The position numbers and the translations under genes were made by a program. A stretch of 64,000 nt of DNA, from assembly GCA_934454525.1 (NCBI GenBank), contig CAKSFM010000001.1:109502-173501 (forward strand). The letters run 5' to 3'. A model generated the notes under the pieces. The model was not told where the DNA came from. It did no database searches and saw nothing but the letters and a program-made list of their open reading frames with translations. Shown here one piece after another: positions 1,646-59,220 of the stretch. Within the stretch, counting starts at the first letter, position 1, and each line of letters starts with the position of its first letter. The DNA comes from an uncultured Clostridia bacterium (GTDB lineage Bacteria; Bacillota; Clostridia; UMGS1883).

Positions 1646-2737
1646 TTATTTAATAAAGCTTTCGGCAATGCTGTGCATTTCATCCAGCTTGGATTCCATG
1701 TCGGCAACAAGCTTGAGCTGCGTTCTCGCCCTGTCAAGATTGTGATTTTCTCTGTGAATCTTAAAATAGACATCGCCGTTGAGATAATCTGCAAGAAAGC
1801 GGATTCCACATTCATATGTCATTATAAGCACAGATTCCGGAAGAAGCTCGACTTCCCTTTTCGTAAGGCACTCGCCGACTTCACCAAGGAAGCCTTCCGC
1901 AAAGCTTTTGTACTTTTCAAGGTCGAAATAAATCTTTGACAAATCGGTTTCATCCTCAGCTCCGCTTGAAGCGCCGAACCGCAATGCGTCACCGAAATCG
2001 TACAAAACCGAGCCGGGCATAACCGTGTCAAGGTCAATAACGCAGATTCCCTTGAGCGTGTCCTTATCAAACAGAACATTGTTCAGCTTGGTGTCATTAT
2101 GAGTAACCCTTGACGGAACGCTGCCGTCCGCCATCGCGTCTGTAATAAGGGAAGCGTACTTCGAGTATTTTTTTGCTGCGGCAAGTTCTTCCGAAACGCG
2201 CGCGGTGCGGTTTTCGTAATTTTTTCTGATTGCAGCTTCAAGCTGTTCAATGCGCTTCGGCGTATTATGAAAATCCACAATCGTTTCATGCAGCAGGCTT
2301 GCGTCAAATCCGTCAAGCATACGCTGGAATTTTCCGAACGATTTTCCGGCTTCAAAAAGCAGCGCCGGGTCTTCGGCAGTATCAAATGATTTTGAGTTTG
2401 ATACGAATTTATACATTCTGAAATAATTGTTGCTGTCAGCCATGTAGCAGTTTTTCCCGAGTTTTGTCTTTATAACATTCATCGTTTCGCGCTCCGGATC
2501 TCCGCCGTTCTTCACAATTTCACTTCTGAGATACTCCGTCACATTTACAATGTTTTCCATGACGCTGTTCGGATCTTTGAACACATTCGTGTTAATTCTC
2601 TGCAAAATATATCCGGGATTTCCCTCGCGCAGATATGTATCATTGATATGACCGTTTCCGTAGGGAACTATCCCCGCCTTGACTGAAAAGTTTTCAACAA
2701 CCTTTTCAAGATTGACTGCCATACTATCTCTCTCCAC
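1646..2737 (-). CDS. Phosphotransferase-family kinase (APH / N-acetylhexosamine-kinase-like fold)
   Basis: 'GNGHINDTY' nucleotide-binding motif, catalytic 'HNDTKLNN' and 'VIDLDTV' (D-x-D) motifs. 363 aa. Confidence 0.7.
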   Translation of the reverse strand: MERDSMAVNLEKVVENFSVKAGIVPYGNGHINDTYLREGNPGYILQRINTNVFKDPNSVMENIVNVTEYLRSEIVKNGGDPERETMNVIKTKLGKNCYMADSNNYFRMYKFVSNSKSFDTAEDPALLFEAGKSFGKFQRMLDGFDASLLHETIVDFHNTPKRIEQLEAAIRKNYENRTARVSEELAAAKKYSKYASLITDAMADGSVPSRVTHNDTKLNNVLFDKDTLKGICVIDLDTVMPGSVLYDFGDALRFGASSGAEDETDLSKIYFDLEKYKSFAEGFLGEVGECLTKREVELLPESVLIMTYECGIRFLADYLNGDVYFKIHRENHNLDRARTQLKLVADMESKLDEMHSIAESFIK

Positions 2738-2880: not shown

Positions 2881-3105
2881 CTAAATATAAATTATAACAA
2901 AAATACTGCTGCCGGTCAATCGGCATAATTCACAAATAACAAAGGCAAAATTTGCTGCCATTGTCACCGCTCCCCTTGGGAATAGGGCACGATATATACC
3001 GGACATATCATAATTATGGCACAAAAGCGCATATGTCAGAGTAAAAAGGTGACTATATGCATTGCCTTTTGTATTTCCAAAATTCCCCGATTTTCCCGCA
3101 CCCAT
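2881..3105 (-). pseudogene. Remnant of a toxin-module start: the first 16 codons 'MGAGKSGNFGNTKGNA' are fused to non-coding sequence
   Basis: The N-terminal 16 aa and upstream 5' UTR hairpin are identical to the toxin genes at 4311 and 7244. Downstream of the junction at about 3057 the reading frame is the antisense of a spoIIID-upstream-like sequence. Confidence 0.7.
2976..3060. repeat. Diverged duplicate of the spoIIID upstream region/RBS (compare 7955-8053)
   Basis: 'ttgggaata...aaaagcgcatatgtYagagtRaaaagg...ctatatgc' is shared. The core 3023-3060 matches 8016-8053 at high identity. A microhomology junction 'atgc' is visible at 3057-3060. Confidence 0.7.
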
Positions 3106-3111
3106 TAAGCA

Positions 3112-3146
3112 GTCACCTGCTTCCCGGAATAAAGGAAGCAGGTGAT
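3112..3146 (-). promoter_or_regulatory. 5' UTR hairpin (13-bp perfect stem) whose 3' arm contains the SD-like AGGUGA, 7 nt before the toxin-module AUG (remnant copy)
   Basis: 'gtcacctgcttcc cggaataaa ggaagcaggtga'. The same stem sequence occurs at 4318-4352 with a different loop. Confidence 0.6.
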
Positions 3147-3708: not shown

Positions 3709-4311
3709 TTATTTTATAAAATGGATTTTTTGCGGTTTAATTTTACCAGGTGTTTTAACAGTTATTTCTACCGCCGGACTATTTGGAGTCTTTGTGATTA
3801 CCCTATAAACAATATTCGATTCATCGGAAAATATTGTTTGCACTCCTTTGCCATTTGGTAAAATCCTTTCGATTCCACCTTTGCTGAGTTTTTTGTAAAA
3901 ATCGGCAGAAGATTTTATAGGGTCATTACTTTTAAATACTCTAGTATTTTTTCCCTTTGTTCCAAAATAACCATTTTCCCCAAGATTATATTTCTTAGCA
4001 ACACTTTTAGCATTATCCACCACACTTGAAATCTTTGAAGTTTTCTTAGTTGTCTTAGCGGCATCTACCGCTTTATCTGCCATTTTAGCAAGTTTTGCCG
4101 TGTCTGCAACTTCTCCGGCAAAGGGGATTATTCCCACAGCGTCAAGTCCTGCCGATAGCAAATCGCCCCGCAGCAAATCAACAGGTATTGACGCAAAATC
4201 AGTAAATGTGTCAAGTCCGGGAATTAGCGATGCCGCCGTTAAAAGGTTGCTTAATGCATCTAATGCATTGCCTTTTGTATTCCCAAAATTCCCCGATTTT
4301 CCCGCACCCAT
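3709..4311 (-). CDS. Polymorphic-toxin-like protein: shared N-terminal module (possible pre-toxin domain) plus a unique C-terminal domain of unknown function
   Basis: The N-terminal 85 aa 'MGAGKSGNFGNTKGNALDALSNLLTAASLIPGLDTFTDFASIPVDLLRGDLLSAGLDAVGIIPFAGEVADTAKLAKMADKA' are identical to the genes at 6669-7244 and 5119-5679. The C-terminus '...YRVITKTPNSPAVEITVKTPGKIKPQKIHFIK' is divergent. Confidence 0.6.
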   Translation of the reverse strand: MGAGKSGNFGNTKGNALDALSNLLTAASLIPGLDTFTDFASIPVDLLRGDLLSAGLDAVGIIPFAGEVADTAKLAKMADKAVDAAKTTKKTSKISSVVDNAKSVAKKYNLGENGYFGTKGKNTRVFKSNDPIKSSADFYKKLSKGGIERILPNGKGVQTIFSDESNIVYRVITKTPNSPAVEITVKTPGKIKPQKIHFIK

Positions 4312-4317
4312 TAAGCA

Positions 4318-4352
4318 GTCACCTGCTTCCTGAAATAGAGGAAGCAGGTGAC
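4318..4352 (-). promoter_or_regulatory. 5' UTR hairpin (13-bp perfect stem, 9-nt loop) sequestering the SD (AGGUGA) of the toxin gene at 4311
   Basis: The minus-strand mRNA reads 'GUCACCUGCUUCC-UCUAUUUCA-GGAAGCAGGUGAC-UGCUUA-AUG'. No U-tract follows, so this is not a terminator. Confidence 0.6.
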
Positions 4353-4424
4353 AAAAAATCAGCGCTTGTTATAATTATTCTAAAAATCAGCATAACACGA
4401 TTTAATATATAAAATATCTTCGTA

Positions 4425-5118: not shown

Positions 5119-5679
5119 TTAATCAAACCAAAGCAAGTCATTAATTGTTTTATATCCTTTATAAGGTAACGAGACCCTTTGAGTTGGAATTTTATCCAAT
5201 CCAAGTTGTTTTGCTGCCCTCAATCTATGATGTCCGTCAACAACATACTTTGTACCTTTATACTCAACATACTTAATAGGTTCAATAATACCATTTTTTA
5301 TGCTTTCCACTAAATTTTTATATTGTTTTTTGCTCAATGTTAGCTTATGAGTTTGTGTTAACTTTGTCGGCGAAATTCTTTTTATACCTTTAGTAAAATC
5401 CGTAGCTTTGTCAGCAGCCTTAGCGGCATCTGCCGCTTTATCTGCCATTTTAGCAAGTTTTGCCGTGTCTGCAACTTCTCCGGCAAAGGGGATTATTCCC
5501 ACAGCGTCAAGTCCTGCCGATAGCAAATCGCCCCGCAGCAAATCAACAGGTATTGACGCAAAATCAGTAAATGTGTCAAGTCCGGGAATTAGCGATGCCG
5601 CCGTTAAAAGGTTGCTTAATGCATCTAATGCATTGCCTTTTGTATTCCCAATCTTGATGAATATTCTAATTGCTCGATT
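5119..5679 (-). CDS. Orphan polymorphic-toxin module lacking the first 15 codons; C-terminal ParB/Srx-like (DGHHR) nuclease-type domain
   Basis: The shared N-module runs from '...GNTKGNALDAL' onward. Nucleotide identity with the other copies ends at 5650. The C-terminus is 'IKYVEYKGTKYVVDGHHRLRAAKQLGLDKIPTQRV'. No ATG sits at the module start, so the true start is unclear (TTG or in-frame). Confidence 0.55.
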   Translation of the reverse strand, partial: NRAIRIFIKIGNTKGNALDALSNLLTAASLIPGLDTFTDFASIPVDLLRGDLLSAGLDAVGIIPFAGEVADTAKLAKMADKAADAAKAADKATDFTKGIKRISPTKLTQTHKLTLSKKQYKNLVESIKNGIIEPIKYVEYKGTKYVVDGHHRLRAAKQLGLDKIPTQRVSLPYKGYKTINDLLWFD

Positions 5680-5713
5680 CTAATTGACGGAATCGAGCAA
5701 TGCATTGTTAATA

Positions 5714-6028
5714 TTAACTTATTTGTATTTTTCCCGCAAATATTTCTTTAGGAAAGTTTAAGTAATTCACCATAAAATAATCATCTTCAGTTATACTTAT
5801 AGGCGGCTCACCAGATATGCTAATCCCCTTGAAAATAAAAGACCAAAACTCCTCATATCCTTCCTCGTCCATATCACAATCAGACTCATCCTCAATATAA
5901 GAATCAAATATTGCCCGAGCCTCGCTTCCATCTTCCCATTTTAATATTAGTTCTTGGTCTTCATAGTTATCAATGTTATTAATAAATGTTCCTATAATTT
6001 TTTCTTCCCTGTCATTCCAAAAATACAT
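5714..6028 (-). CDS. Small acidic protein, putative orphan immunity protein
   Basis: 'MYFWNDREEKIIGTF...DESDCDMDEEGYEEFWSF'. RBS GGAGGAAG. It immediately follows the stop of the toxin C-terminal fragment at 6031-6159. Confidence 0.45.
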   Translation of the reverse strand: MYFWNDREEKIIGTFINNIDNYEDQELILKWEDGSEARAIFDSYIEDESDCDMDEEGYEEFWSFIFKGISISGEPPISITEDDYFMVNYLNFPKEIFAGKIQIS

Positions 6029-6030
6029 TT

Positions 6031-6159
6031 TTACTTCCTCCAATTAATTGGTTTTTCTGGCACAAGATGTGTTCCAGATTTGGAATAATGTATTATCCCA
6101 ACCGTGGTATCATATGATTTTCCCGTCTTTGGGTCAACATATTTTCCTATTATTTTTTT
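6031..6159 (-). pseudogene. C-terminal fragment of a degraded toxin gene (no start codon). Its stop overlaps the RBS of the downstream acidic gene
   Basis: Open frame 'KKIIGKYVDPKTGKSYDTTVGIIHYSKSGTHLVPEKPINWRK*' with no ATG/GTG/TTG start. It is bounded upstream by TAA at 6160-6162. Confidence 0.4.
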
Positions 6160-6200
6160 TTAATTAACAGTTTCTCTGTTTGTGCCAATCTTTCGACCTT

Positions 6201-6267
6201 ATTGAAAATCAATCGATGGTGAAAGCCGCTGCAAAGAACTTTGCTCTTTCCAAATCGAGTGTACATA
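6201..6267 (+). repeat. 67-bp duplicate of an internal spoIIID segment (matches 8102-8168, codons 17-38), 2 mismatches
   Basis: 'attgaaaatcaatcgaYggtgaRagccgctgcaaagaactttgctctttccaaatcgagtgtacata' matches. Confidence 0.85.
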
Positions 6268-6310
6268 CAATTGTAACAAGACAGCAACCTTTTATATAGA
6301 AGTGGCTTCA

Positions 6311-6668: not shown

Positions 6669-7244
6669 TTATGGTATGATATGTGACTTTTTAGAGTTTT
6701 TCGGCACTGGGTTTCCAAATTTATCTAAATAGTAATCATGTTTGCCTGTTGAGTTTGGATTTAAAATATGATAATGATCCTTTCCTCCATATCCTCCCAT
6801 GCTTCTTTTCCCTTTGTGAAACCTTATTGTATAACCGTTCTTTTTGAACATCCTTGATGTTGTATTCTTCTTCATTGCTGCCGGAGTTATTTCTTCCCAA
6901 CCGTTTTCCACTAGTTTCGATGGAGTTTTGTGTAATTTCAGTATTTTAACCCCCGATTTAGTAGCATCCGTAGCTTTGTCAGCAGCCTTAGCGGCATCTG
7001 CCGCTTTATCTGCCATTTTAGCAAGTTTTGCCGTGTCTGCAACTTCTCCGGCAAAGGGGATTATTCCCACAGCGTCAAGTCCTGCCGATAGCAAATCGCC
7101 CCGCAGCAAATCAACAGGTATTGACGCAAAATCAGTAAATGTGTCAAGTCCGGGAATTAGCGATGCCGCCGTTAAAAGGTTGCTTAATGCATCTAATGCA
7201 TTGCCTTTTGTATTCCCAAAATTCCCCGATTTTCCCGCACCCAT
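6669..7244 (-). CDS. Polymorphic-toxin-like protein: shared N-module plus a C-terminal HNH-like (H-Y-H...N...H) candidate nuclease domain
   Basis: The N-terminal 100 aa are identical to the other copies. The C-terminus is 'GGKDHYHILNPNSTGKHDYYLDKFGNPV'. The ATG overlaps the stop of the upstream ORF (TAATG), giving translational coupling. No UTR hairpin is present here. Confidence 0.55.
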   Translation of the reverse strand: MGAGKSGNFGNTKGNALDALSNLLTAASLIPGLDTFTDFASIPVDLLRGDLLSAGLDAVGIIPFAGEVADTAKLAKMADKAADAAKAADKATDATKSGVKILKLHKTPSKLVENGWEEITPAAMKKNTTSRMFKKNGYTIRFHKGKRSMGGYGGKDHYHILNPNSTGKHDYYLDKFGNPVPKNSKKSHIIP

Positions 7245-7807
7245 TAAGCAGTCACCTGCTTCCTGGACTTTGAAATTTCACTTTCAAAATGCACAATATT
7301 GATGCCCATATCCTTATATGGCTTAAAAATACTTTCCGGTGCACCGCCATAAACTACTATAGTTTCAGGCGATAGCCTTTGCACCATACGGGCGAGACCT
7401 ATTTCAAAAAAGATTTTATCCTCTTTGTGTTTAATACATCCGTGTGTCCCTACCGCGACAGTTTTATTTTCTTCTACCGCGTCAAAACAGAATGAGAACG
7501 TCCTCTCATCCCCAAATCTCACATTGGGGATAATTTCAACTCCGTTATTTTGAAGCCAGACCGATAAAGCTCTGCCTCTATATGTATTCCACATTTGCAT
7601 GCAAAGCGGCATATTGCGATACAGGCTGAAATCCGGCGAAATTATGCCCTTGAACTTTTTGAGTTTCGCAAGGTACTGTTTGGGATTATGCCATAGGCAT
7701 AACCTCATCTTTTTCAAACTGAAAAATATATGTAAACGTTGCATAGTTTTTTTCATTTCCCACATAAGTGTATAAATGTGGCAAAATATTGTCTTTTTCA
7801 GCGTCAA
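7244..7807 (-). CDS. Hypothetical protein translationally coupled to the first toxin gene; the true start is probably internal (about MPLCMQMW/MQMW)
   Basis: The C-terminal 110 aa 'NGVEIIPNVRFGDERTFSFCFDAVEENKTVAVGTHGC...IVVYGGAPESIFKPYKDMGINIVHFE' look protein-like. The N-terminal 70 aa look like a non-coding translation. Confidence 0.35.
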   Translation of the reverse strand: MTLKKTIFCHIYTLMWEMKKTMQRLHIFFSLKKMRLCLWHNPKQYLAKLKKFKGIISPDFSLYRNMPLCMQMWNTYRGRALSVWLQNNGVEIIPNVRFGDERTFSFCFDAVEENKTVAVGTHGCIKHKEDKIFFEIGLARMVQRLSPETIVVYGGAPESIFKPYKDMGINIVHFESEISKSRKQVTA

Positions 7808-8053
7808 GCAAGTGGGCCGTTATATCAACAACGGCAGTACACAGGCTTGATTTACCCGAGCCGTTTTTACCGATTTTGGAAATGAGTAATAAAACAAGGT
7901 TCTTTAAAGATTTTCAGGAATTTTACCTGTAAGGGTTTTAGCGCTTCGGCTGTTTTGGGAATAATAGCGCCCGATAACTTTTGCAATAATGCCGCCCTTT
8001 ATCATATTCGGGCATAAAAGCGCATATGTTAGAGTGAAAAGGGGGCTATATGC

Positions 8054-8323
8054 GTGAAAGACTATATCGAACAGCGCGCCTTAATGCTGGCAGATTACAT
8101 AATTGAAAATCAATCGACGGTGAGAGCCGCTGCAAAGAACTTTGCTCTTTCCAAATCGAGTGTACATAAAGATGTTACGGACAGACTGCTTAAAATTGAC
8201 CCGACACTTGCGCGAACCGTTAAAGCCGTGCTTGACAAAAACAAGGCGGAGCGGCACATCCGCGGCGGAATGGCAACAAAACGCAAGTACGAGGAAAAGA
8301 AGCGCCGATACGCTAATATCTGA
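8054..8323 (+). CDS. spoIIID: Stage III sporulation protein D (SpoIIID), mother-cell transcription factor
   Basis: '(M)KDYIEQRALMLADYIIENQSTVRAAAKNFALSKSSVHKDVTDRL...IRGGMATKRKYE' closely matches B. subtilis SpoIIID. GTG start with RBS AAAGGGGG. Confidence 0.9.
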   Translation: MKDYIEQRALMLADYIIENQSTVRAAAKNFALSKSSVHKDVTDRLLKIDPTLARTVKAVLDKNKAERHIRGGMATKRKYEEKKRRYANI

Positions 8324-8981: not shown

Positions 8982-9148
8982 ATAAAAAATGCGCCCCTTA
9001 TAAATCGGGGCGCATTTTTATTGCATTTTAAAATCTCCTGTCATCCGGACTTTAACCGTCGGCTGCGGAGTTTCACCGCATCGGCCTCAAATGAGGTTAG
9101 TGGGCTTTGACCACCGGTAGGGAATTTCACCCTGCCCCGAAGATATAT
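8982..9148 (-). ncRNA. FMN riboswitch (RFN element) with an intrinsic terminator (8982-9019) as expression platform
   Basis: The minus strand reads 'aucuucggggcagggugaaauucccuaccgguggu...gaggccgaugcggugaaacuccgcagccgacgguuaaaguccggaugacaggagau'. This matches the B. subtilis ribD leader consensus. A hairpin 'aaaaaaugcgcccc/ggggcgcauuuuuu' plus U-tract sits just before the ribU start. Confidence 0.85.
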
Positions 9149-13661: not shown

Positions 13662-13744
13662 TTTTTTCGGTTCGCTGTGTTAATATGGCATTGTTACCCT
13701 GCGGTGTGCGCAGTTACGGATTTATTTTAACCAACACTTCTACT

Positions 13745-13845
13745 ACGGGAGATCATATAGAGCTGTGGCGTGTAAGCCCTTACCTACGGGTCAGAGGGAA
13801 ACCCAGGAGCAGCTCCGAGATCACCCACCTGCTCACGCAGGTTTA
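13745..13845 (+). ncRNA. Candidate small structured RNA, SRP-RNA (4.5S-like) domain-IV-like motif. Boundaries are approximate
   Basis: 'ccuuaccuacgggucagagggaaacccaggagcagcuccgag' resembles the SRP RNA helix-8 consensus 'uuaccaggucagguccggaaggaagcagcc' (GUCAG...GNRA loop...AGGAGCAGC). The region is intergenic, the ORF at 13658-13846 is implausible, and I could not draw a convincing fold by hand. Confidence 0.3.
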
Positions 13846-13907
13846 GAATATTCCGAAATAAACGGCACTGCGGGGTTTTTATTTTATAATTTAAGGAAGG
13901 ATTTCAA

Positions 13908-14924: not shown

Positions 14925-15213
14925 AATTTAATAACCAAACGCAATGAAGGGAAGGAGTAAATACCCTGAACCGGTTATAGAGAGAGGCGGACGGTGGAAG
15001 CGCCTTATCGGAAGGTATTGAAGTAGTCCCGGAGCGGCTGACCGAACAGTGCACGGTGCGCTAAGTAGACTCAGACGGAGAAGTTTCCGCCGTATAAAGG
15101 GATTTCGGCATCGATTTATTTCCGTGCTGTATGAGGTGCAAGGATAGTTCCCTTGCATGAAGTTAGGTGGTAACACGAGTCATTCGTCCTAATACGGACG
15201 GATGACTTTTTTT
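14925..15213 (+). promoter_or_regulatory. T-box-like riboswitch leader (Stem I with AGAGAGA bulge and a distal loop containing GGUGGAA, T-box sequence, antiterminator/terminator)
   Basis: The T-box-like sequence 'aaguuaggugguaacacgag' at 15160-15179 sits upstream of the terminator. The antiterminator can form as 'uagg'-[UGGUAAC bulge]-'acga...ucgu'-'ccua'. The competing terminator is 15179-15213. The specifier codon could not be assigned by hand. Confidence 0.5.
15179..15213 (+). terminator. Intrinsic terminator of the leader (11-bp stem, U7)
   Basis: 'gtcattcgtcc taatac ggacggatgac ttttttt'. Confidence 0.8.
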
Positions 15214-54811: not shown

Positions 54812-55015
54812 TGCGAACAAACTTCGCCGCTCGGCGTACATAGGTACGCCGAGCGGCGAAGTTTGTTGATAGCAAGAAAAGGGGGATTCTTTGAAAAATC
54901 AAATTTTTGATTTTTCTACTTTAATGAATCCAAACTGCAAGAATTATATTTCATGTAAATATATGCTTTTTCTCCTTTTCTTGCGTTCCGGAGCTTTTTA
55001 ACATCCCCGTCGTTT
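54812..55015 (-). repeat. About 200-bp intergenic element (copy 2, inverted relative to copy 1). It begins at the first base after the upp stop and contains a perfect 24-bp-stem palindrome (54816-54867)
   Basis: rc(54812-55015) aligns with 21101-21316 in two blocks of about 50 and about 90 bp. The palindrome is 'aacaaacttcgccgctcggcgtac-atag-gtacgccgagcggcgaagtttgtt'. A second, AT-rich hairpin is 'gaaaaatcaa attt ttgatttttc'. Confidence 0.85.

Positions 55016-59142: not shown

Positions 59143-59220
<78 letters not shown>

Follow-up and report, generated by a model that had tools for sequence, protein, structure and literature searches.

The 64,000-nucleotide (nt) stretch of contig CAKSFM010000001.1 analysed here (the window, to which all positions refer) comes from an uncultured Clostridia bacterium and contains an array of polymorphic toxin and immunity cassettes on the bacterial chromosome, in which two RNA hairpins, A and B, cover the ribosome-binding site of a full-length toxin gene (toxin 4) and of a short toxin-gene remnant at the end of the array. 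The genes under discussion all lie on the minus strand and are listed with the hairpins in Table 1; other loci and strain contigs are designated by L numbers, and the two window hairpins by WINA and WINB when they appear among them. The three toxin genes have in common an N-terminal repeat of 294 nt (87-100% identity) and differ in their C-termini and in the open reading frames (ORFs) that follow. A database search with toxin 1 returned 368 homologues of ~190 amino acids (aa) from uncultured Clostridia, all with the same N-terminus, whose interchangeable C-termini include Ntox50, Ntox37 and ParB_N, with small ORFs downstream of each; these homologues bear out an earlier reading of the window from its sequence alone (the sequence-only reading), which had taken the genes for parts of toxin modules. 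The N-terminal domain itself matched no Pfam, NCBIfam or PHROG family (PT-TG was also without a match), and a Pfam search with putative immunity gene 1 gave none either. Toxin 1 occupies a coupled slot, in which the stop codon of the preceding DUF4417 gene (7246..7244) shares bases with the toxin ATG as TAATG in the ORF list. This DUF4417 gene is 5'-truncated in the window and full length (215-229 aa) upstream of the first toxin gene in ~40 other loci. Toxin 3 is an orphan without ATG, Shine-Dalgarno (SD) sequence or hairpin, the N-terminal homology of its translation starting at codon 8, and the exact protein of immunity gene 4 is present on 23 contigs.

Table 1. Features of the toxin array and its surroundings, in window coordinates
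Feature	Position	Strand	Basis or remarks
5'-truncated DUF4417 gene	7244..7807	-	Pfam DUF4417, E=2e-45; profile positions 60-182 of 183 only
Extended SD GGAAGCAGGUGAC of the coupled first copy	7251..7263	-	Exact match; same sequence as the hairpin 3' arm; without 5' arm
Small hairpin AAGCAG-GUGA-CUGCUU at the first-copy ribosome-binding site	7246..7261	-	-7.0 kcal/mol
Toxin 1, 191 aa, coupled slot	6669..7244	-	ORF; ~95-aa conserved N-terminal domain and variable C-terminus
Putative immunity gene 1, 113 aa	6311..6652	-	Own SD GGAGGG; called as a 113-aa gene in L004
Older-cassette debris	5714..6277	-	spoIIID-side flank copy (6196-6277), toxin-gene 3' end and immunity gene
Putative immunity gene inside debris, 104 aa	5714-6028	-	Sequence; gene calls in L004
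Toxin 3, start-less orphan	5119..5697	-	ParB_N C-terminus, E=1.6e-6; part of 294-nt repeat
Metallophosphoesterase, 224 aa	4425..5099	-	Metallophos, E=3.8e-12
Hairpin A (5' arm 4352..4340, loop 7-9 nt, 3' arm 4330..4318)	4318..4352	-	Before toxin 4
Toxin 4, 200 aa, full-length orphan	3709..4311	-	ORF; ATG and SD, behind hairpin A
Putative immunity gene 4, 180 aa	3152..3694	-	Own SD AGGAG
Hairpin B, array end	3112..3146	-	Begins 5 nt past the immunity gene 4 stop
Remnant	3013..3105	-	ATG and 45 nt of toxin N-terminus (3105..3061), joined to a copy of DUF4417-upstream sequence (3060..3013)
APH-family kinase gene, next after the array	2737..1646	-	

The sequence-only reading had described both hairpins as perfect stems of 13 base pairs (bp), identical in sequence, that bury the SD of the gene behind them, and had proposed a folding-energy calculation as a check. 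In the mRNA, hairpin A (4352..4318) reads GUCACCUGCUUCC-ucuauuuca-GGAAGCAGGUGAC, and an extra U-A pair extends it to a perfect stem of 14 bp with a 7-nt loop; its minimum free energy is -24.7 kcal/mol (z = -7.6), and none of 200 dinucleotide shuffles was as stable. The 5' arm of hairpin B is AUCACCUGCUUCC, with A as its outermost base in place of a beginning GUCACC... (the plus strand at 3134-3146 reads GGAAGCAGGTGAT), and this one mismatch leaves 13 pairs, 12 of them Watson-Crick and one U.G, at -22.6 kcal/mol (z = -7.2; 0 of 200 shuffles as stable). Both hairpins are thus real and bury the SD, but perfection holds only for A, which is even longer than claimed, and the two stems of the window are not identical. 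Since the counterpart of hairpin B in the sister strain L006 has G and a perfect stem, the A in the window is a recent change. The loops are unlike at 3 of 9 positions, in line with the earlier account, which was also right that AGGUGA, 7 nt before the AUG at both 4311 and 3105, is the sole SD-like sequence between hairpin and AUG. Allowing up to 2 mismatches, the arm 13-mer occurs 6 times in the window against 0.77 expected (0 of 100 shuffles reach 6), and perfect inverted repeats of at least 13 nt with a short spacer number about six in the whole 64 kb. Neither hairpin matched an Rfam family, whether the gathering threshold was applied or E values up to 5 were allowed. The 3' arm (GGAAGCAGGTGAC) recurs at 7263..7251 as the final codons of the upstream DUF4417 ORF, a point that the sequence-only reading did not make; this arm was therefore duplicated together with the cassette, and the 5' arm alone is an addition.

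The computed cost of opening the ribosome-binding site is 20.8 kcal/mol at 4311 and 17.6 kcal/mol at 3105, against 11.4 kcal/mol at the coupled start at 7244, and the probability that AGGUGA is unpaired is at most 0.014 at 4311 and at most 0.042 at 3105. As expected of a cis-acting anti-SD hairpin, it is the 3' arm that holds the AGGUGA of the downstream ORF. This arm is an extended SD, complementary except at one central position to the 3' tail of 16S rRNA, which we take from other Firmicutes to be GGAUCACCUCCUUUCUA and which may differ in this genome; the 5' arm is accordingly an anti-SD mimic, and it pairs at all 13 positions, including the central base at which the 16S tail has its mismatch. 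With this assumed tail the SD:anti-SD duplex is calculated at -14.5 kcal/mol for the window variant and -16.1 kcal/mol for the common variant, and both hairpins exceed the -14.5 kcal/mol of the former. Melting by temperature and release by a small RNA or a helicase had been put forward as ways of opening the stem. RNA thermometers are marginally stable SD hairpins that melt between ~30 and 42 °C, and the present stem is too stable to be one, being predicted in full at 80 °C (-7.5 kcal/mol; -22.6 kcal/mol at 42 °C); we found nothing that points to a small RNA or a helicase.

At the coupled start the ribosome-binding site lies in a mini-hairpin of 6 bp, whose 3' strand consists of the last DUF4417 codons and the first U of the UAA stop, so that a ribosome terminating on DUF4417 would open it. 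Among 25 distinct first-copy junctions 94% of the mini-hairpin cells are paired and 3 pairs are changed on both sides, a result reached by 2 of 500 shuffles; the placement of the coupled-copy SD in a covarying structure points to selection on RNA structure at the binding site. From these comparisons the toxin binding site seems to be built for translational coupling, and the long hairpin seems to be the same principle made irreversible. Additionally, immunity genes 1 and 4 have SDs of their own, and immunity gene 4 should therefore be translatable independently of toxin 4.

The comparison set consisted of 65 species-level loci from reference genomes, 6 metagenome loci and strain variants, ~100 related loci altogether, with unique junctions only being counted. 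Scans with the hairpin pattern returned just 6 metagenome loci and no viral contig. A full-length DUF4417 gene precedes the first toxin gene in almost every locus, with a junction (...TTTTCAAAGTCCAGAAAGCAGGTGACTGCTTAATGGG) that hardly varies, and the hairpin occurs at none of 41 DUF4417-coupled toxin starts; the absence that the sequence-only reading had noticed at the first copy of the window, where stop and start overlap, thus holds over dozens of species. The search for the same stem before homologues in other genomes, which had been suggested at the same time, found it at 11 of 17 starts flagged as uncoupled, or 11 of ~14 once DUF4417-adjacent variants are set aside. Three of the six exceptions (L048, L042-1 and L038) are really such variants; L007-2 has kept the 5' arm, the loop, 3' arm and SD having been deleted between CTGCTT direct repeats, and L040 and L061 have no trace of a hairpin. 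The distinct hairpins total 25, range from -17 to -29 kcal/mol and occur in more than 20 gut Clostridia.

An alignment of these 25 hairpins has standard pairs in 91.7% of its cells, a share that drops to 36-54% if the partner is shifted by 1-3 columns. Both sides have changed at the outer pair 7-42 (GC/AU), the central pair 14-35 (GC/AU/UA) and pair 18-31 (UA/CG), the last being the one that separates GGAAG from GAAAG; the observed covariation score was reached by none of 500 shuffles, and RNAalifold independently predicts the same helix. Moreover, L032 and L033 differ by compensatory changes in the stem inside near-identical flanks, and in L054, L032 and L007t the 5' arm tracks its own 3' partner and not the first-copy SD of the genome. 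Compensatory change in stems whose loops vary argues for the selection on the stem that the sequence-only reading had deduced from two copies, and the structure is conserved as one would expect of an anti-SD hairpin, although templated palindrome correction could mimic this. On the sense strand, non-Watson-Crick cells of the arms are G.U in 15 cases and A.C in 4 (~11 against 2 independent events by our count); this excess is suggestive of RNA structure in the mRNA, the events being few and non-independent and a directional A-to-G change in the SD arm being possible. The central base of the SD arm (pair 14-35) is C, U or A among the hairpins and never G, which would give a perfect SD and a 5' arm identical to the 16S 3' end.

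Strain variants differ in the toxin that occupies the coupled slot. Toxin 4 with immunity gene 4 lies directly behind DUF4417, free of the hairpin, in L006/L092, L093 and L096; toxin 3 is full length and intact (185 aa) in the coupled slot of L104, and holds that slot with the rest of the array downstream in L091, L099 and L103; and the window arrangement, with toxin 1 coupled, is found also in L004, L087 and L090. Orphans can thus hold the expressed position in other strains, as expected of an array of silent cassettes, and the states seen are the products expected of homologous recombination between the N-terminal repeats. The sequence of hairpin A is identical in all 9 other array-bearing strain contigs examined. 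In seven contigs (L088, L089, L090, L091, L094, L103 and L105) orphan toxin 4 is disabled by a 1-nt deletion at nt 60 of its N-terminus, which implies strains that retain immunity genes but have lost at least one toxin, in some cases apparently all.

The sequence-only reading had offered, as an alternative, that the inverted repeats are recombination sites. A DNA site that marks cassette boundaries for site-specific or hairpin-recognizing recombination, similar to lox or dif or to attC, would explain why the element lies exactly at these boundaries, the array end included, and its 13-bp inverted arms with a short spacer resemble recombinase core sites; there is a tyrosine-recombinase gene ~3.5 kb beyond the array in L004, and inversions of the loop at the DNA level are seen in L054 and L083. 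We nevertheless regard such a site as very unlikely. The 11-13-bp arms of lox, FRT or dif sites are matched, but the spacer varies from ~0-4 nt (L022, L013, L075) to 17-18 nt (L070, L024b), which is incompatible with a fixed crossover region of 6-8 bp. Integron attC sites have the core sites RYYYAAC and GTTRRRY. The arms here (GTCACCTGCTTYC and GRAAGCAGGTGAC) are unlike these, the element measures 31-37 bp and not 57-141, and no integrase is conserved beside the arrays. Further, the neighbours of the L004 recombinase are spoIIM and housekeeping genes, and the other loci lack it, the sole conserved neighbour (DUF4417) models without likeness to a recombinase, the pattern had no hit in viral contigs, and homologous recombination in the 294-nt repeats explains the cassette switches. 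A related idea, which we consider a long shot, is that the palindrome is also the DNA boundary element of an integrase-free cassette capture, a short, attC-like folded site at which some further activity would insert new cassettes behind the DUF4417 expression site, so that recombination site, ribosome-binding site and lock on translation would be one and the same.

Taking together the structure of the hairpin, its conserved and covarying stem, the lack of any hairpin at coupled starts and the strain variants with another toxin in the coupled slot, we suggest that the hairpin blocks spare toxins, that the coupled slot alone is open and that recombination switches between them, and we give this model an even chance. 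In this model the 3' arm, the toxin's own extended SD, stems from the final 13 nt ahead of the DUF4417 stop and is inherited whenever a cassette is duplicated, and the 5' arm, an inverted copy of it, acts as a cis anti-SD. In the first slot a ribosome finishing DUF4417 at TAATG would open the weak 6-bp hairpin and the toxin would be made by translational coupling; in downstream slots, where no ORF ends at the start codon, the hairpin of 13-14 bp (-23 to -25 kcal/mol) would keep the SD buried, leaving a spare full-length toxin untranslated while its immunity gene would still be made from its own SD. Homologous recombination between the 294-nt N-terminal repeats would delete the intervening cassettes and fuse a spare toxin to the coupled, hairpin-free junction, switching the toxin that is expressed. 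Since the SD is clamped by ~21 kcal/mol and no upstream ORF ends nearby, an effect on translation follows from established principles of initiation; we infer, in addition, that the array is transcribed through, that translation of the spare copies is blocked and that this blocking is the selected function of the hairpin.

Several observations weigh against this model. Roughly half of the hairpins are followed by no more than 0-45 nt of toxin N-terminus and are paired all the same (WINB, L006, L013, L022, L075, L077, L045, L046, L007t, L026, L032, L033 and L036b), and behind those of L026, L032, L033 and L036b, which have putative orphan immunity genes downstream, the ATG itself is lost (TTAATC) with the stems intact. 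The terminal hairpins beside a convergent spoIIID (L013, L022, L075) are the most stable of all, to -28.9 kcal/mol, and have evolved in the direction of perfect 34-bp palindromes. Pairing in hairpins without a toxin gene cannot be maintained by toxin silencing, and silencing is not the only constraint on the hairpin; the built-in translational off-switch of the sequence-only reading is accordingly upheld as far as burial of the SD is concerned, but not for the hairpins that precede a stub or no start codon. ORF integrity gives no clear sign of extra decay behind hairpins (6 intact and 4 disrupted, versus 32 and 11 in coupled positions), and the nt-60 deletion cannot be taken as decay specific to locked copies, since it is found in coupled toxin 3 as well, which it disables in L091 and L099; this deletion has probably spread between repeats by gene conversion. 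There is no obvious reason to silence a spare toxin that has a cognate immunity gene, and with DUF4417 truncated in the window coupling may be impaired here. Finally, quasipalindrome template switching can, with no selection at all, yield perfect arms and compensatory changes, and DNA-level events of this kind do happen here, as two loops are exact reverse complements of loops elsewhere (L054 versus hairpin A, and L083 versus L036a or the common AAAGTCCA).

The last of these points lead to a second explanation, in which the palindrome has no selected function: it would have arisen as a by-product of one fold-back or template-switch event where the end of DUF4417 was duplicated, travelled with the cassettes thereafter and been kept perfect by correction against itself. 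Its commonest form indeed consists of GTCACCTGC, an inverted copy 9 nt long, joined directly to the final 34 nt of DUF4417 and the ATG (TTTCAAAGTCCAGAAAGCAGGTGACTGCTTAATG), natural TTTC...GAAA microhomology is present at the fold point (L036a, L046, L073), the loop can be followed as it turns into stem (AAAGTCCA to CGAATCCG to CGGATCCG, the last within the perfect 34-bp palindrome of L022), and one copy (L007-2) has been lost through slippage. Quasipalindrome template switching is established (PMC7202029) and minute inversions of hairpin loops are well known in plastid DNA (PMC12371153); perfected arms, both loop orientations and loss by slippage are common to those cases and to the present one. 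The phenomena described there are mutational, with no assigned function, whereas the palindrome here lies on a ribosome-binding site and its distribution is tied to coupling. Stems of at least 11 bp persist in 23 of the 25 junctions, in many genomes of species level and with four or more unrelated flanks upstream; the bias towards G.U over A.C on the sense strand is unexpected of a strand-symmetric DNA process; and the coupled-copy SD likewise lies in a covarying structure. We therefore find it quite improbable that the palindrome is a by-product and nothing else, although part of the perfection of the hairpin is owed to DNA-level palindrome dynamics. More generally, covariation in a palindrome beside a repeat needs care, DNA flip-flop and templated correction being visible in the same element.

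The hairpins without a toxin bear on a third explanation, namely that the stem-loop belongs to the upstream cassette as a weak intrinsic terminator or 3' stabilizer and that SD occlusion is a side effect. In most loci 5-16 nt separate the stop codon of the preceding gene from the start of the hairpin, strong conservation extends to the terminal hairpins, which make up half of the total, the GC-rich stems are of terminator-like size, and tail variants TGTTTAAT in L013 and L033, as well as hairpins with the tail UGUUUAAU in relatives, pass a simple terminator scan. The terminator scan reports neither window hairpin: the GC-rich stem and the loop (3-8 nt being usual) are those of a canonical intrinsic terminator, but where a U-rich tract should follow the stem immediately, 4 of the 8 tail bases (UGCUUAAU) are U. 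At least one strong palindrome elsewhere in this genome (24631-24661) does have canonical flanking A and T runs. In WINA, L013 and L022 a T run stands before the stem and not after it, and the putative orphan immunity genes directly past 'terminal' hairpins (L026, L033, L036) would be cut off. For attC, PMC8876359 reports that termination did not stand up to testing and that an effect on translation was preferred. We consider it unlikely that termination or stabilization is the primary role, but at array ends the same stem-loop probably persists as a 3' stem-loop of this kind (weak terminator or stabilizer), where it may also be maintained by self-templated palindrome correction.

The proposed locking of spare toxins by an anti-SD arm has counterparts in several known systems. 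Sequestration by a cis anti-SD, or coupling by its unfolding, is known from the type I toxin mRNAs hok, tisB and aapA1, from MS2 coat-lysis/replicase, and from atpHA and rpmI-rplT. There, as here, an upstream complement buries the SD and has to be opened, classically by an upstream ribosome; unlike in the hok, tisB and aapA1 class, no antisense RNA or processing step is evident here, and on and off would correspond to different genomic positions of a cassette (the coupled or a downstream slot) and not to alternative folds of one RNA. With the orphan cdiA-CT/cdiI and Rhs-CT arrays (Poole et al. 2011, PMC3150448) the present array has in common that downstream toxin/immunity modules share a conserved region with the expressed gene, that this region is the recombination route into the expressed position, and that orphan toxins are untranslated with orphan immunity translatable, the last as proposed here. 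The orphan cdiA-CT modules are silent for want of initiation signals, lacking start codon, SD and delivery domain (PMC3150448); in contrast, toxin 4 and its counterparts are complete with ATG and strong SD, only toxin 3 being start-less, and silencing would come from a dedicated anti-SD hairpin. Moreover, the proteins here are small (~190 aa), belong to Clostridia and are coupled to DUF4417, with no CDI (contact-dependent growth inhibition) or Rhs machinery present. The attC stem-loops of integrons (Jacquier et al. 2009, as reviewed in PMC8876359) are boundary palindromes that fold in the polycistronic mRNA and lower translation of the next cassette, a block relieved by termination-reinitiation or coupling, as in our model. 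Foremost, however, attC is an IntI recombination site of 57-141 bp, imperfect, with extrahelical bases and conserved core sites, whereas the present element is nearly perfect, carries an SD and its complement and is without an associated integrase.

Silent toxin cassettes (PMC3150448), anti-SD hairpins and coupling by unfolding are each already known. In the literature searched we found no account of complete, SD-bearing spare toxins locked by an anti-SD arm that derives from the expression site, with the coupled slot alone open. Known libraries of spare cassettes (CDI, Rhs, MafB) are silent as fragments; here they are complete genes with a very strong ribosome-binding site, and on and off differ visibly in one respect only: either a ribosome that completes the upstream gene opens the site, or the 13-bp anti-SD arm clamps it. 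If locking and recombinational release are true, the sequence would reveal, by a simple rule, the toxin that a strain uses and those to which it is only resistant, and the rule would cover widespread uncultured Clostridia of the human and ruminant gut; the array would, further, be a compact natural design with one expression slot, locked cassettes and unlocking via homologous recombination.

Of the neighbouring genes, DUF4417 was considered as a recombinase or nuclease and rejected: a PDB sequence search was only marginal (E ~0.007 or more), and the PHROG 'nuclease' label stems from a longer profile of 388 positions, of which DUF4417 covers positions 164-361. Its AlphaFold model (mean confidence, pLDDT, 83.7) has an alpha/beta fold for which Foldseek returned no significant match, the best PDB hit (E = 2.8e-3, TM 0.38) being a weak, partial one of beta/alpha-barrel type and not recombinase-like. 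The last ~25 nt of the gene are near-invariant in nucleotides across species, with synonymous sites just upstream varying. The metallophosphoesterase, which is calcineurin-like, lies directly 3' of the ParB_N-type toxin gene in the window, L078 and L104; it also follows similar-sized toxin genes in L013, L024 and L049, and an orphan copy follows a 121-aa ORF (DUF7674 in L079). Its position is one in which an immunity gene would be expected, and it probably serves the ParB_N toxin as immunity or partner gene; an enzyme in this role would be unusual and suggests that what the toxin produces is destroyed by the phosphoesterase.

Pieces of the spoIIID-side flank are duplicated within the array and at its end (6196-6277 versus 8097-8178, 90% identity; 3013-3060 versus 8006-8053, 85%), and a fragment of a P-loop ATPase gene (~7830-7900) lies between spoIIID and the truncated DUF4417; these remains together indicate that cassettes have been imported repeatedly with foreign flanks. 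In the strains with toxin 4 first (L006 1-70, and the contig starts of L093 and L096) the sequence upstream of the truncated DUF4417 is unlike that of the window and has a tRNA-like GGTTCGAGTC motif, and all three contigs break at that edge, which suggests a further repeat or insertion there. The DUF4417-toxin-immunity operon is found in unrelated neighbourhoods according to species (the gyrA/parB region, the his operon, spoIIP, folD/metG; L001, L078, L079, L083 and others), and hence the whole module moves.

A strong antisense promoter-like site overlaps hairpin A on the plus strand (4348-4375; GTGACA, 16 nt, TGnTATAAT; 11 of 12 positions matching), its -35 box being the outer end of the hairpin arm and its direction being back into the preceding gene. 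Comparable antisense sites occur in L013 (8333-8306) and, with the other flank type, in L033 (8203-8175), and all may be a coincidence in AT-rich sequence. The wider setting is that of an ordinary chromosome, with a flavin mononucleotide (FMN) riboswitch (9029-9148, minus strand), 6S RNA (13693-13880, plus), a T-box leader (14935-15194, plus) and a tRNA gene (59143-59217, plus). The longest palindrome of the window lies far from the array, at 54816-54867, and is a perfect 24-bp inverted repeat with a 4-nt spacer (AACAAACTTCGCCGCTCGGCGTAC / GTACGCCGAGCGGCGAAGTTTGTT).

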